From positions 1,448-65,447 of the forward strand of contig DVHC01000055.1 in assembly GCA_018712385.1 (NCBI GenBank): DNA of 64,000 nucleotides, in the 5' to 3' direction. Positions 51,001 through 57,000 of this stretch are shown here, one piece after another. Every line of letters begins with the position of its first letter. Within the stretch, counting starts at the first letter, position 1. A program made the position numbers. This stretch comes from Candidatus Onthousia excrementipullorum. GTDB taxonomy: Bacteria; Bacillota_I; Bacilli_A; RF39; UBA660.

Positions 51001-54000
51001 TAGTTATATAACGGGATGTAGTTATGGAAGTCCAAGTAATGCAAATACAGATTATGGATGTCAATATACATATGATAATAATATAAGAACAGAAGAAGGA
51101 ATGACAGGAAAAGGAGTAGGAGCCAGTACAACGGGAACAATCTATGGTGTATATGATATGTCAGGAGGAGCTTGGGAGTATGTTATGGGAAACTATAACG
51201 ATATGGTAGCTTCAAGTGGATTTGAGAGTATGCCAGAAGCAAAGTATTATAACAAGTATACAAGTAATAATCCTAGTACAGCATGTAATGGAAGTGAATG
51301 TTTATCACATGGATTAAGTGAGACATCAGGATGGTATAATGATGCTAGGACGATGGTAAGTGAGGAGTACCCATGGTTGTTGCGCGGCGGTCTCTGTTAC
51401 AACACTTCTAGTGCGGGTGTTTTCGGCTTCGGTGCCTGGCTTCTTGGTAATGGTAGCAGCAGTGGCTCGTTCCGCCTCGTGATGAGCGTGACTAGTCCGT
51501 AAGGACTAACTCTTCTTCACTGAGCAAAATAAGATGGTAAAAATAGAGAAAGAAAGAATATTGTCGAATTATTCGTGATGATTAGCCTCGGGGCCCTCTT
51601 TTTTGCCCCGAGGCGATTTTCGTTTTTTTTTGATTATTTGTAAAGAAGTAGAAAAAAGTCCGTGGCTTTTCTTTTGATAAGCCACGGACTTAATTATATT
51701 TTAATAAATTTATCTTTACCTACTCCACATATTGGACATTTCCAAGCATCGGGTAAGTCTTCAAATTTTATGTCTTCTTTTTCATCATCATATATATAAC
51801 CACAGATTGTGCATTTATATTTATTTCCTTTTTTCATATTTTCCTTCTCCTTTGTTTCATTATATGTTGGTGCTTTAGAAGGTGATTTACCTTTTAAAAC
51901 TTCATGATAGTATTTGTATGTCATTGGTGTTTTATTAGATGTTTGTTTTGTGTTTTTAATCTTTATTAAAAATACATCATGAGTATTAACATCTATTATA
52001 TCTATAACTTCTCCTATTATATATCCTGATATATTTTCTAATACTACAGGTAAGTTATTTATTTCCTCCCATTCTATATCTTTGAATTTGTCTATGTACT
52101 TTGAAGAAAAATATCCAAATGTTGAAATTGTTTTTTGCTTTGTTTCTTCTGTTAAAATAGATATTGCACATTTTTTGTTTTCTTTTAATGCTTTATTTGT
52201 ATAGTTTTCTTTGTTTAAACTTATAGATATTATAGGATTTTTTGATGTTATTTGCATTACTGTATTAATAATACAGCCTACATTTTTATTATTATCTTTT
52301 GTAGTTACTATATACATACCATAAGTAATATTGTTTGAAACTGCTGTATCCATACTTCCTCCTTCAATGTTAATTATATCATATTAACCGATAGTAAAAC
52401 TGGAAAAAACTTTCATTGTTATTTAATTTTAGTTTTTGTACAATGAAATTGTCATCTAATAATTAGATGATAGGGATTAAATCATTGTACTGTTTTCTCT
52501 TGATGTTGGTACTTCGCTCTTTTATTGCTTCCAAATATTTTGGTTGTTGCGCGGCGGTGGTTTTTTGTGTAATTGATTTCGTCAATATTCTTTGTTGCTC
52601 TATTTTGATACGATGCTCGTAAGGCTCGTTCCGCCTCGTGATGAGCGTGACTACGATATAATCGTAATTTAAGTTATTATGTATATAATAAAAAATTAAT
52701 ATCCTAGAGATTTAATTCCTACTTTTATAAGTAAACTTATATATATGATGATGGTTAGTAGTTTGTTTGGGCGAATATCAGTAATCATAGGCAAGGCTCT
52801 TAGCCTTGTTTTTGTTATGTAGTTTTGATAAAATTTGTTTGGGAAAAACTTTTAAATACCGTTTTATTTACGTTATGGTGCGCGGCGGTGGTTATAATAA
52901 TACTACTAATGCGGGTGTTTTCAACTTTAACGCAACTATGAATCTTGGTGGTTCTAACAGTAATAACTCGTTCCGCCTCGTGATGAGAACTATGATATAA
53001 GAATTATTTAAGTTATTATAGATATAATAAAAAATATTTATCATAGAGAGTTTTTTTCCAATTCATTTTATGAATAAAAAATGAAGTAATATATTTCTAG
53101 TTAGTAGGCTTTTCGAATACTAGAAAGTATGTGTTTAAAACTATTTGTTTATATAGATTGTTTTTCTTAGTAATTTATGGTACTTTTTTGTTGGGAGAAA
53201 CTTAAAAGTTATTTTGTGATGTGATTTAGTTGTTGCGCGGCGGTAACTATAACAACACTTCTAATGCAGGTGTTTTCAACTTCAATACCTGGAATCTTGG
53301 TAATGGTAACAACAATGGCTCGTTCCGCCTCGTGATGAGAGACTATGATATAAGAATTATTTAAGTTATTATGTATATAATAAAAAATAAATATCATAGA
53401 AAGTTTTTTCCAATTCATTGTATGAATGAAAAAATGAAGTAGTATGTTTCTAGTTAGTAGGTTTTTCGAATACTAGAAAGTATTGTGTTTAAAATTATTT
53501 GTTTATATAGATTGTTTTTCTTAGTAATTTATGGTACTTTTTTGTTGGGAGAAACTTAAAAGTTATTTTGTGATGTGATTTAGTTGTTGCGCGGCGGTAA
53601 CTATAACGATACTACTAATGCAGGTGTTTTCAACTTTAATCGTACTACTACTCAGGCCGCTGGTAACATTAACAATTCGTTCCGCCTCGTGATGGGAGAC
53701 TATGATATAAAAGTTATTTAAGTTGTTATAGATATAACAAAAAATAAATATCATAGAAAGTTTTTTCCATTTCACTTTGTGAATAAAAAATGAAGTAATA
53801 TGTTTCTAGTTAGTAGGTTTACGAATACTAGAAAAATATAACTATAAGTATTTATTTGCTTTATTATAGATTGTTTTTCTTGGTAATTTATGATACTTTT
53901 TTGTTGGGAGAAACTTAAAAGTTATTTTGTGACGTGATTTAGTTGGTGCGCGGCGGTAGTTATACTGCAAATGGTAATAATGCGGGTGTTTTCTATTTCA

Positions 54001-57000
54001 ATACTAACGGTAACACTGGTGATGTTAATAACAACGGCTCGTTCCGCCTCGTGATAAGGACTATGATATAAGAATTATTTAAGTTATTATTTATATAATA
54101 AAAAATAAATATCATAGAAAGTTTTTTCCTTTTTGCTTTGTCAAATAAAAAATGAAGTAATGTTTCTCTAATTAGTAATTATTGAATATTAGAGGACTTT
54201 TTTATTGTATCTTTTTGTTTTTTATGTTAATTTTTAAGTAGGGAAAAATTTAAAAACTATATTCCTTTTAGTGGATGTTTGTTCATGCTGCGCGGCGGTA
54301 ACTATAATACTGGTGGTAATAATGCGGGCGTTTTCTATTTCAATACTAATAGTTGGAACATTGGTAATGCTAATGTTAATGGCTCGTTCCGCCTCGTGAT
54401 GAGAGACTATGATATAAGAATTATTTAAGTTATTATAGATATAATAAAAAATAGTTATCATAGAAGTTTTTTCCAATTCACTTTGTGAATAAAAAATGAA
54501 GTAATGTATTTCTAGTTAGTAGGTTTACGAATACTAGAAAAATATAACTATAAGTATTTATTTACTTTATATAGATTGTTTTTCTTGATAGTTTGTGTTA
54601 ATTTTATGTTAGGGAAAGATTTTAAAAATTATATTATTTTAGATTGGTGCGCGGCGGTAGTTATAATAATGCTAATGCGGGTGTTTTCAACTTTAATCAT
54701 GCTGCCCTTGGAAGTGGTGATGTCAATAACTCGTTCCGCCTCGTGATGAGGACTATGATATAAGAATTATTTAAGTTATTATTTATATAATAAAAAATAA
54801 ATATCATAGAAAGTTTTTTCCTTTTTGTATATACAAATAAAAAAACGAAGTAATTTTTTTCTAGTTAGTAGGAGATGAATACTAGAAAAATATAACATTT
54901 TGGAGGGCGACTATGGATGATTTAGAAGGATTAGTTATCTATAAACAATATGTAGAGCTTATTTATTATACTCTTTCAATACTTTTAAAATATCCTAAGA
55001 GTGAAAGATTTTCTTTAGCTCAAGATATTAAAAATTCTACTTATGATGGTCTTAAAGATATTATTTATGCTCAGAAAGAATATGATAAGAAAAAAAGACT
55101 TTCATATTTAAATGAACTTGATGCCAATCTTAAAATTATTAAAGTGTTAATTAGAGTCTCTCATAAGAAAAAATATATTAATTCTAAAAATTATACGGCA
55201 TGGAGTAAGAAACTTACTAATATTTCTAATCTTAATGGAGGGTGGATTAGATCATGCCTCATACGATAAGAAATGAGTTTGATAAACATTTAACTATTGA
55301 AGCGTTGTTAGATGCTCATGAACGTGCTTGTAAGACTAAGAGATATTCTAGGGAAGTTTTAAAGTTTGAAATAGATTTAGAGACTAATATAGTTAATCTT
55401 TATAAGAAATTAAAAAATGGTACTTATAAAATGGGTAAATATAGGACTTTTAAAATATATGAACCTAAAGAAAGAGTTATTAGAGCCTTACCTTATGTTG
55501 ATAGAATTGTTCATCAGTGGTATATTCATGAATTTATTAAACCTTATGTTGTTCCAAGATTTATTAGTGATTCTTATGCATGTATAGAAGGAAAAGGTAC
55601 TCATAAAGCGGTTGATAAAGCTCAAGAGTATATGCAGAAGATGAAGAATAAATATGGTACTTATTATATTGTTAAATGTGATATAAAGGGATTCTTTTAT
55701 AATATAGATAAAGATGTTTTATATAATATTTTGAAGAAATTTATTAAAGATGAGAAACTCTTGGCTTTGACTTATGAGTTTATATATAATGATGGAGAAG
55801 ATGTAGGGCTTCCTATAGGAAATTATACTTCTCAGTTCTTTGCTAATATTTATATGAATGAACTTGATCATTATATTAAAGAACGACTTAAAGTTAAATA
55901 TTATGTAAGATATATGGATGATTTTATTATGTTTGTTAGGACTAAAGAAGATGCTAAGAAAGTTCTTTTTGATGTATCTAAATATGTTATGGAAGTGCTT
56001 CATTTAGAACTTAATAATAAGAGTAGATATTATCCTAATAAAATGGGACTTGACTTTTGTGGATTTAGAATATATGAGAGCTATAGATTGCTTAGGAAAA
56101 GAAGTATTAAAAAGATTAAGAGAAAAGTTAGAAGATGGAATATGCTATATGAAAGAGGACTTCTTGATTTAGATAAAACAGTACTTGAGTGGAATTCTTG
56201 GCTTGCTCATAGTTCTCATGGAAAGTGTTATAAATTACAGATGAATATATATAATAAAATAATCTTTAAAGAGTATTTAAAAAAGCCTTATGTAGAGACT
56301 TATGGAAGAATATTGTAGTCGAGGAAGGTGAATGGTGTGAGCGTATATGAGAAAACTAGATGGGTTTTTATTATAAATATTGCACTTATATTGTATGTAC
56401 TATTTGTTTTTGGCCCTTCTGCTATGCCTATTGTTGGGTTTGTTGTTGATATATTTTTATTATTAGGTAGTCTTTATCTTATAAATGATAATATTTTTGC
56501 ATATAATGAGAAATGTAAGAAAATAACATATGTTGTTACTATCATAATTATAGTATGCAGTTTTTTAGTTAATAATAAAGAGTTTGAACTTTACTCGTTT
56601 GTTATGACTTTTTTTAGATTTATGTTATTCTTTTTTGCTATTATAGAAGGCGTTTTTGTAATAGAAGGAATAGTAGTAAAGAAAAAGGCAAATAAAAATA
56701 AGTGATTGGTTTGCAAAAAATATTTATTTCTTATATAATACTTTTATTAATTTTGGGGGTGCTATAATGAATTTTAATGAGATAGATTCACTTACTTACG
56801 ATAAATATACCTTTGGTAAATGTATAAGAAAACAAAGGGAAGAACAGAGCATTTCTGTAAGATGTCTTGCTAAAAACTTGAATATATCCCCAATGTATTT
56901 GAGTGATATTGAAAGAGGTAATAGATATGATCCTGTTAAAGGAGATACTTTAAGTGGTCTAATAGAATACTTAAATATTCCAGAAGAACAGGTTGTATCA

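Follow-up and report, generated by a model that had tools for sequence, protein, structure and literature searches.

A 64,000-nucleotide stretch of Candidatus Onthousia excrementipullorum DNA (GenBank assembly GCA_018712385.1, contig DVHC01000055.1, forward strand; hereafter the window, numbered from its first letter) carries a diversity-generating retroelement (DGR) in which the place of the single template repeat (TR) is, very probably, taken by an array of template-RNA genes that lie in tandem as alternatives to one another and serve one variable region (VR). The array consists of six adenine-rich coding cassettes, B to G, preceded by an adenine-poor, non-coding unit A; the VR lies at the 3' end of an upstream gene, and avd and the reverse transcriptase (RT) gene follow the array. 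At least five of the coding cassettes, plus unit A, are used at this same locus in near-identical strains, and the adenine-only differences between the coding cassettes and their VR copies suggest that transfer is by retrohoming. Apart from the single TR expected of a DGR, which it lacks, the system is a DGR in every testable respect, while its layout resembles that of silent-cassette antigenic variation.

Conserved ends, GCGCGGCGGT…TCGTTCCGCCTCGTGAT, delimit eight units in the window: the VR, the six A-rich TRs (B–G) and the A-poor unit A. Exact matches to GCGCGGCGGT numbered eight across the 64 kb, compared to a chance expectation of 0.65, and TCGTTCCGCCTCGTGAT also matched eight times (0.01 expected). 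The GCGCGGCGGT matches begin at 51382 (VR), 52549 (unit A) and 52880, 53235, 53589, 53948, 54290 and 54649 (B–G), and Tandem Repeats Finder reported a single array at 52876-54888 with 5.7 copies at a period of 354 and a match rate of 77%. Counted from GCGCGGCGGT through GTGAT, the TR cores B–G are 105, 102, 105, 108, 111 and 99 nt long and all are in frame, and the interiors of the TRs contain 25-31% A, compared to 16% for unit A. An earlier, sequence-only reading of this stretch had placed six array starts, all of which are exact GCGCGGCGGT matches, and had described the cores as in frame with one another, which stands, although each length that it gave was 1 nt too large. Its translations of the cassettes agree with our re-translation, the in-frame TAG that it noted 5' of cassettes C, D and E was found two codons upstream, and its choice of cassette C as the sole match to the window's VR was borne out: 16 of the 26 template adenines and none of the 58 other bases differ, with no gaps. 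Unit A (52549-52642) was absent from its list.

The genes downstream of the array are those of a DGR. The avd product (54913..55269, + strand; 118 aa) matched Pfam bAvd (PF22296, E=3.1e-23) and NCBIfam DivGenRetAVD (NF033474; 84 bits against a cut-off of 80), and the RT gene (55254..56318, + strand; 354 aa; RVT_1, E=1.5e-18) overlaps avd by 16 nt. DGR-type RTs are diagnosed by the motif (I/L/V)GxxxSQ, which replaces QGxxxSP, together with the catalytic YxDD; the RT here carries IGNYTSQ and YMDD. An NCBIfam scan of the RT returned sub-cut-off matches to other RT families alone, NCBIfam being without a DGR-RT model, and identical copies of the protein occur in 76 indexed blocks of a public assembly collection. 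When nine TR–VR pairs were pooled, 115 of 232 template adenines (49.6%) differed, compared to 4 of 548 other bases (0.7%; Fisher p=7e-66), a rate equal to the ~50% of adenines changed in the Bordetella phage DGR (PMC6182149). The locus therefore combines a DGR-type RT, an Avd beside it, TR/VR differences confined to adenines and a structured spacer RNA for which priming is predicted; it departs from the rule of one TR per VR set in having six coding modules and one null module for one VR.

The target gene (49631..51502, + strand) is an open reading frame (ORF) of 623 aa with an N-terminal membrane anchor, and the VR occupies its last ~35 codons; the C-terminus that the VR encodes shows an RGG…AGVF…SFRLV pattern. 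The protein had no Pfam match above threshold, and the likeness of its C-terminal domain to FGE-sulfatase/C-type-lectin-like domains was solely sub-threshold (FGE-sulfatase at E=0.004-0.01; among 35 homologues, 16 matched it with E no higher than 0.05). An AlphaFold2 model built from a 35-sequence alignment had a mean predicted local distance difference test score (pLDDT) of 39.8, falling to ~25 in the C-terminal half, and contained a helix at residues 13-41; sequence and profile searches of the PDB with the target returned nothing usable. The gene is followed by an intrinsic terminator at 51584..51632 (+ strand), AGCCTCGGGGC…GCCCCGAGGC and then a T run.

The VR itself (51376..51483, + strand) is an adenine-mutagenised copy of cassette C (53235-53336), and its flanks differ from those of the templates at the 3' end. 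The 5' limit of transfer lies within TTGTTG/GCGCGGCGGT, and in sister contigs and proteins an upstream TTGGTG or ATGCTG was co-converted with the VR. The 3' side forms a target-recognition region (51467..51508, + strand) composed of the shared GC-rich element TCGTTCCGCCTCGTGATGAG, the VR-specific GCGTGAC and a hairpin: the sequence runs GAGCGTGAC and then enters a hairpin with a 6-bp stem and a GTAA loop (51493-51508) that contains the stop codon. Aligned to the templates, the VR reads …GTGATGAGCGTGAC and TAGTCC-GTAA-GGACTA, whereas the TRs read …GTGATGAGAGACTATGATATAAG, and their 3' flanks continue GAGAGACTATGATATAAG with no hairpin. The hairpin is kept at the VRs of related metagenome-assembled genomes (MAGs), including a compensatory stem change, TAGCCC..GGGCTA, in L052/L056 (L numbers denote related loci and contigs). 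This layout matches the target requirements of the Bordetella phage element, a 3' element plus a hairpin (PMC3240598), and would provide the directional recognition, like that of the initiation of mutagenic homing (IMH) element, that is expected of a DGR.

Evidence that one VR draws on different donors came from comparing strains and relatives. The target protein belongs to a 90%-identity cluster of 82 members, and among the 15 listed (P0001-P0015) the VR was of class C in 3, B in 4, D in 2, F in 3 and G in 1, and was truncated by unit A in 2. The 583 residues before the VR differed from the window's protein at 0-20 positions among these members, and for P0006 (F), P0013 (G), P0004 (B) and P0003 (A) at just 0, 1, 1 and 2. 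In a codon-level test, each of the 13 full-length VRs fitted adenine-only change of exactly one cassette type, with 0-2 incompatible codons for the matching type and at least 4 for any other. By type, the assignments were P0004, P0009, P0010, P0015, L102 and L126 to B; P0008, P0011 and L151 to C, which is also the donor of the window's present VR; P0002, P0012 and L152 to D; P0005, P0006, P0014, L124, L149 and L150 to F; and P0013, L122 and L123 to G.

The nucleotide comparisons gave the same picture. Contig L122 is 98.7% identical to the window overall and its TR cores B–G are identical but for one base in E, and its VR is a copy of cassette G with 14 adenine-only differences in which G's upstream TTGGTG was co-converted. 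Contig L123 also has a G-derived VR, while that of L121, which is 100% identical to the window across 18.7 kb, is from C, as is that of L151 (14 adenine and 0 other differences). The VRs of L124, L149 and L150 derive from F with 10-12 adenine-only differences, those of L126 and L127 from B (12 adenine and 1 other difference) and that of L152 from D (12 adenine and 2 other differences). The gene neighbourhood is the same in all of these contigs wherever flanks were recovered. Cohort samples with near-identical strains differed in VR class (BRZ_GI, G; BRZ_FF, F; BRZ_HT/HS, B; ONAT22-1, both G and F), and in species-level relatives with orthologous targets at 96-98% amino acid identity, the VR came from B (L102), from the last TR (L112) or from unit A verbatim (L101). 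A scan of JGI metagenomes with the VR flank returned one match, of an unrelated class. The proposal of the sequence-only reading that the cassettes swap the length and scaffold of the VR, with adenine mutagenesis acting on top, is thus supported: near-identical targets contain VRs that trace back to B, C, D, F or G. The search of relatives that it had called for, for sequences bounded by the same ends, turned up VRs matching B, D, F and G with essentially adenine-only mismatches, and the comparison of arrays between strains that it had likewise called for showed cassettes gained, lost and replaced.

Two of the related loci carry insertions. At L126 11261-13756, the RT gene is cut to 226 aa and followed by a separate RVT_1 ORF of 438 aa, which looks like a group II intron-type insertion; the VR there is nonetheless a mutagenised B copy. 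At L128 11033-12463, a transposase gene (DDE_Tnp_IS240, 476 aa) lies between the last cassette and avd, and the VR slot holds unit A.

The coding modules share one plan. All lie on the + strand, and each ~350-bp module appears to consist of a promoter-like element, a leader predicted to pair with the spacer, a TR of 99-111 nt and a structured spacer of ~165 nt. In module B (52806..53126) the promoter-like element is at 52806-52834, the leader GGGAAAA at 52841-52847, the TR core at 52880-52984 (105 nt) and the spacer-end hairpin at 53094-53126. The promoter-like element, leader, TR core and spacer end are, respectively, at 53158-53186, 53193-53199, 53235-53336 (102 nt) and 53479 in module C (53158..53479); at 53512-53540, 53547-53553, 53589-53693 (105 nt) and 53834 in module D (53512..53834); at 53871-53899, 53906-53912, 53948-54055 (108 nt) and 54195 in module E (53871..54195); at 54205-54233, 54240-54246, 54290-54400 (111 nt) and 54540 in module F (54205..54540); and at 54576-54604, 54611-54617, 54649-54747 (99 nt) and 54888 in module G (54576..54888), whose spacer directly abuts the avd ribosome-binding site. 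Module E ends in GTGATAAGG rather than GTGATGAG on its 3' side, and its 3' spacer hairpin shows compensatory changes.

An alignment of 56 cassettes from ~16 MAGs gave a predicted consensus RNA of six helices in which 98% of cells were paired. The leader GGGAGAA pairs with UUUUUUCC in a helix that brackets the TR, the GC-rich TR ends pair with each other, three helices lie in the 5' part of the spacer, and a 3' hairpin carries a conserved UUAGUAG…CGAAUA loop. Compensatory changes were found at 17 pairs, compared to 6.9 in shuffled alignments (0 of 500 reached 17) and 3-7 in slid controls. Just 5' of the leader, 48 of the 56 cassettes have a promoter-like element, TTGnnn, 17 bp and TGnTAnnnT, whose columns T65, T68 and A69 are invariant within otherwise variable sequence; it may be the extended -10 promoter of each cassette. 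The array contains a single terminator-like site, after module A, and none between cassettes B–G; because the G spacer also abuts the avd ribosome-binding site, the predicted cassette promoters probably drive avd and RT as well. Against the 3' half of the spacer, the Rfam model RT-14 (RF02921) scored 27-37.5 bits in five cassettes, below its gathering score of 48.1.

The same arrangement is found in ~16 related species-level MAGs labelled uncultured Bacilli, "Tenericutes" or Candidatus Onthousia (class Bacilli), identified by a 17-mer scan with one genome per species. Their arrays hold 2 to ~12 coding cassettes with a period of 320-360 bp, and nearly all of them open with unit A, which has a spacer variant of its own. 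One array lies in a closed 1.5-Mb long-read genome, and the architecture also appears in the long-read assemblies L110 and L128. Three distant RT relatives (L144, L146, L147) sit at contig ends and are uninformative on arrays.

Taken together, these features suggest how a tandem array could serve one VR. All TRs share the 5' end of the VR, TTGnTGCGCGGCGGT, and its GC-rich 3' end, TCGTTCCGCCTCGTGATGAG, and GCGTGAC and the GTAA-loop hairpin follow the VR alone, so adenine-mutagenised complementary DNA (cDNA) from any module could home one way into the VR. The spacer would be of the kind known from the Bordetella phage DGR, binding Avd and priming cDNA synthesis. The recipient would be the single VR, which lies 3'-terminally in the gene for a putative surface protein with a membrane anchor; a change of module would swap the non-adenine framework and the length of a predicted binding loop (27-31 codons between RGG and SFRLV), and adenine mutagenesis would then randomise Asn-rich positions within the chosen framework. 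Module A, when copied into the VR, would introduce a stop or frameshift and create a reversible OFF allele.

Module A (52416..52815, + strand) has the RNA scaffold of the others plus a terminator of its own, around a different kind of insert. Its insert (52549-52642) is preceded by a promoter-like TTGTTA-17-TACAAT (52416-52444), a 5' hairpin (52450-52472) and the leader strand GGGATTAAATC (52473-52483), and downstream of it come SpA, a conserved spacer variant specific to this module, and the terminator (52790-52815). The insert has TR-type ends and is A-poor and non-coding with an in-frame stop, and its length is not frame-constrained across MAGs. The scaffold around it is conserved across 12 MAG loci, and compensatory changes affect 10 of its pairs: a leader helix of GGGAUUAAAUC with GAUUUAAUUCC is kept by such changes, and the intrinsic terminator covaries. 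An origin of unit A as an adenine-loss derivative of the TRs was rejected, as there is no alignment at non-adenine positions and the AGVF-coding GCnGGTGTTTTC is absent.

Unit A occupies the VR slot of at least five assemblies (L101, L109, L110, L079 and L128) and of the proteins P0003 and P0007, where it truncates the protein just past RGG. These copies are nearly faithful: 2 of 52 template adenines and 0 of 322 other bases differ (Fisher p=4e-11 compared to the coding cassettes). Sequence context was rejected as the cause, as isolated adenines in the coding TRs change at 15 of 41 positions. An assembly artefact is unlikely, since unit A was found in the VR slot with four assemblers (SPAdes, MEGAHIT, metaFlye and one producing 'tig'-named contigs), two of them long-read, and since in L128 the copy in the VR slot differs from that in the A slot by one base and in its 5' flank. 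The near-faithful copying leads us to infer a faithful route, most simply short-homology gene conversion rather than mutagenic retrohoming, and the A state may be a loss-of-function OFF allele that is reversible because the VR ends and hairpin are intact; these are the least certain parts of our account.

Two further observations concern the A module in relatives. In L052/L056, the first module is an A scaffold (SpA plus terminator) that holds a coding insert resembling a partly adenine-mutagenised copy of the array's third TR, as if the slot had once received cDNA. At L049 7700-7975, which lies downstream of a paralogous target gene at a remote site in OZ006970, ~776 kb away from the array, a VR-type 3' flank with a hairpin is joined to the promoter, leader and insert of an A-type module, the spacer being absent; recombination between repeats seems to have left this arrangement as a relic. 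Both point to recombination among the repeats.

Such recombination raises the strongest rival, namely that DNA-level gene conversion of the vls/pilS type switches cassettes through their short shared ends and that the RT mutagenises the VR afterwards from the matching TR. We consider this unlikely, though it accounts naturally for the 2 of 52 changed adenines in unit A compared to 115 of 232 in the coding cassettes, which probably reflects an RT-independent route, and for the A-leader/VR-flank fusion in L049, the coding insert in the A scaffold of L052/L056 and the gain, loss and replacement of cassettes. Against it, no unmutated copy of a coding cassette was present in any VR seen, the least changed having 5 adenine-only differences (L072), and 13 of the 13 full-length VRs of P0001-P0015 were single-cassette with no mosaics. 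Moreover, known DGR target recognition needs just the 3' element and hairpin (PMC3240598), and both ends of the VR recur in every TR, making direct retrohoming from any cassette the default expectation.

The possibility that the extra cassettes serve remote targets, one TR per VR, and do not compete for the adjacent VR had been raised by the sequence-only reading as its own alternative, and we regard it as a little less probable again. Remote use does occur in the lineage: the complete MAG OZ006970 has, ~776 kb away from the array, a VR (L049:7465) that differs from array TR3 at 14 adenines, at no other base and by one 3-nt indel, many MAGs of the lineage have several paralogous target genes on other contigs, and the window is 64 kb of its genome. 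It is unnecessary to explain the array, because the adjacent VR itself can be traced to B, C, D, F or G in different, near-identical strains, so that remote use is possible in addition but not instead. In the closest MAGs, furthermore, the sole other 17-mer locus (L069/L108) matches no array TR, the best comparison leaving 12 non-adenine mismatches and 6 gap positions. That the cassettes are inert duplications or decaying TR copies and the other VR classes assembly chimeras is very improbable: such repeats do break or confuse short-read assemblies, and several related contigs end inside or beside the array, but the VRs are adenine-mutagenised rather than TR-identical and are bordered by unique gene sequence on one side and the VR-specific flank on the other, the promoter-like element and covarying RNA are retained by all modules across ~16 MAGs, and the same VR alleles recur in independent samples, with the long-read L110 and L128 in agreement.

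Several points weigh against our interpretation of the array as alternative templates that retrohome into one VR. The near-faithful copying of unit A implies at least one non-canonical transfer route at the VR, and conversion first with mutagenic homing second would give the same end products as direct retrohoming. Cassette E, alone among the coding cassettes, was in no VR among the sequences examined, the TR–VR pairs of L126, L112 and L152 include 1-2 non-adenine differences, and the match to the remote OZ006970 VR needs its 3-nt indel. Switching is deduced from consensus assemblies of different samples, not from within one population, and the window's exact target protein, VR included, is on 40 contigs, which suggests that alleles are stable enough to spread and that activity may be rare. 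A generic promoter scan of this AT-rich DNA gave no excess over shuffles, so the promoter claim rests on column conservation across cassettes, and the promoters are consensus-level predictions. Finally, the model and searches above gave no firm fold for the target.

An array of alternative templates for one VR shares several components with canonical DGRs. As in the Bordetella phage BPP-1 (mtd-avd-TR-brt), Treponema denticola TvpA and Legionella LdtA systems, Avd and an RT accompany a VR at the 3' end of a target ORF, and ~50% of adenines are changed while other bases are kept. The GC-rich shared 3' element with a hairpin at the VR only is likewise known from the BPP-1-type VR (PMC3240598), and a structured non-coding spacer downstream of the TR from the Bordetella phage DGR (PMC6182149). 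Unlike canonical DGRs, the system here has six coding modules and one non-coding module in tandem, each with a promoter-like element and a spacer, for one VR; its spacers precede avd rather than the RT gene, and an unrelated opposite-strand gene lies between target and array.

DGRs carrying at least two TRs have been reported, in Stenotrophomonas sp. SKA14 (PMC6642488) and among 53 DGRs (PMC11661182), and the zeta crAss-like phage Lera pairs TR1 with VR1, TR2 with VR2 and TR3 with VR3 (PMC12386605). These share with our array several TRs per RT, but in the portions of the three reports available to us each TR has its own VR or the extras are filtered as redundancy, and those portions describe no TRs competing for one VR, no regular TR-spacer array and no null cassette. 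Alternative TRs for one VR are not discussed in the accessible text of two large DGR surveys (PMC5758913, PMC8144416). Full-text literature searches returned no description of a tandem TR-spacer array, many-to-one TR use or a null template; they covered subscription literature only in part, and an earlier description is possible. As far as the literature was searched, then, DGRs with several TRs are known, and many alternative TRs serving one VR appear new here. The RNA has a partial precedent: the 'RT' RNA motifs of Weinberg et al. (2017) include RT-14, and also RT-10, which is the BPP-1 DGR spacer (PMC5737381). The RT-14 likeness of our five cassettes, scoring below gathering, extends to UUUUUUCC, a small hairpin and a stem with the UUAGUAG…CGAAUA loop; RT-14 is without assigned function, and the sections of that paper at hand report no tandem arrangement.

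The other point of comparison is the silent-cassette systems. In Borrelia vlsE/vls, Neisseria pilE/pilS and Mycoplasma genitalium MgPa, an array of promoter-proximal, non-expressed cassettes lies beside one expression site for a surface protein, short conserved repeats bound the cassettes, and the variable segment is replaced one way. Replacement there proceeds segment by segment through gene conversion of the RecA/RuvAB type; it yields mosaics, involves no RT and shows no adenine bias. The locus described here has in common with them the array next to one expression site, the short conserved ends and the one-way transfer, whereas it differs in moving whole cassettes with an adenine signature and in having no mosaics. 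Measured against the faithful transfer of vls/pilS, the coding cassettes, with 49.6% of adenines changed, do not conform; unit A alone, at 2 of 52, is compatible and resembles faithful conversion.

The DGR is chromosomal; one flank carries clpP and a gene for a PRK-family kinase, the opposite flank rpsL, rpsG, fusA and tuf. The opposite-strand gene between target and array (51694-52353, - strand) encodes a flavin-reductase/rubredoxin fusion; it is present in the window's clade, L104 and L107, absent from L109 and L110, and split into ORFs of 76 and 40 aa in L122, L123 and L152. Directly 3' of the RT gene, a membrane ORF of 125 aa (56328-56705) is kept in 7 of 14 related loci with 50-67% identity over part of its length, and next after it, an HTH_3 regulator gene (56767-57186) is kept in 3; an accessory role is possible. 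Elsewhere, the window contains a T-box leader at 426-627 (+ strand; RF00230, 108 bits, above the gathering score) and, at ~63227-64000 (+ strand), an ISL3-family transposase gene that crosses the window end and was read from L121.

The array also bears on how DGRs are surveyed and used. Pipelines that merge or discard extra TRs, as PMC11661182 appears to do in the part of its text available, likely miss such arrays. DGR-based directed-evolution tools pursue multiple TRs in one cell (10.64898/2026.07.21.739853), and the modules, with promoter, leader, TR and spacer, would amount to a compact set of natural parts for multiplexed templates; between the constant ends, natural DGR target recognition here seems to accept many inserts unrelated to one another. 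As for unit A, its faithful copying raises the question of what turns adenine mutagenesis off, or of which recombination route competes with retrohoming at the VR.

For the organism, we tentatively propose, and with some reserve, a two-tier programmed variation: a loop framework would be chosen from separately transcribed templates and then hypermutated by the DGR, while unit A, equipped with a promoter, a spacer variant and a terminator of its own, would serve as a dedicated, reversible OFF/reset unit that arrives by a faithful route. Conserved across a lineage of small-genome gut Bacilli, the system would be a natural hybrid in which retroelement hypermutation is combined with antigenic or phase variation of the cassette type. 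DGRs have been understood as one template rewriting matching VRs, that is, the adenine positions of one fixed-length framework. Here, the framework and the loop length (27-31 codons) would themselves be switchable among at least five templates in use, and the gene could be turned off; framework switching would multiply the reachable sequence space, and the null template would add phase variation.

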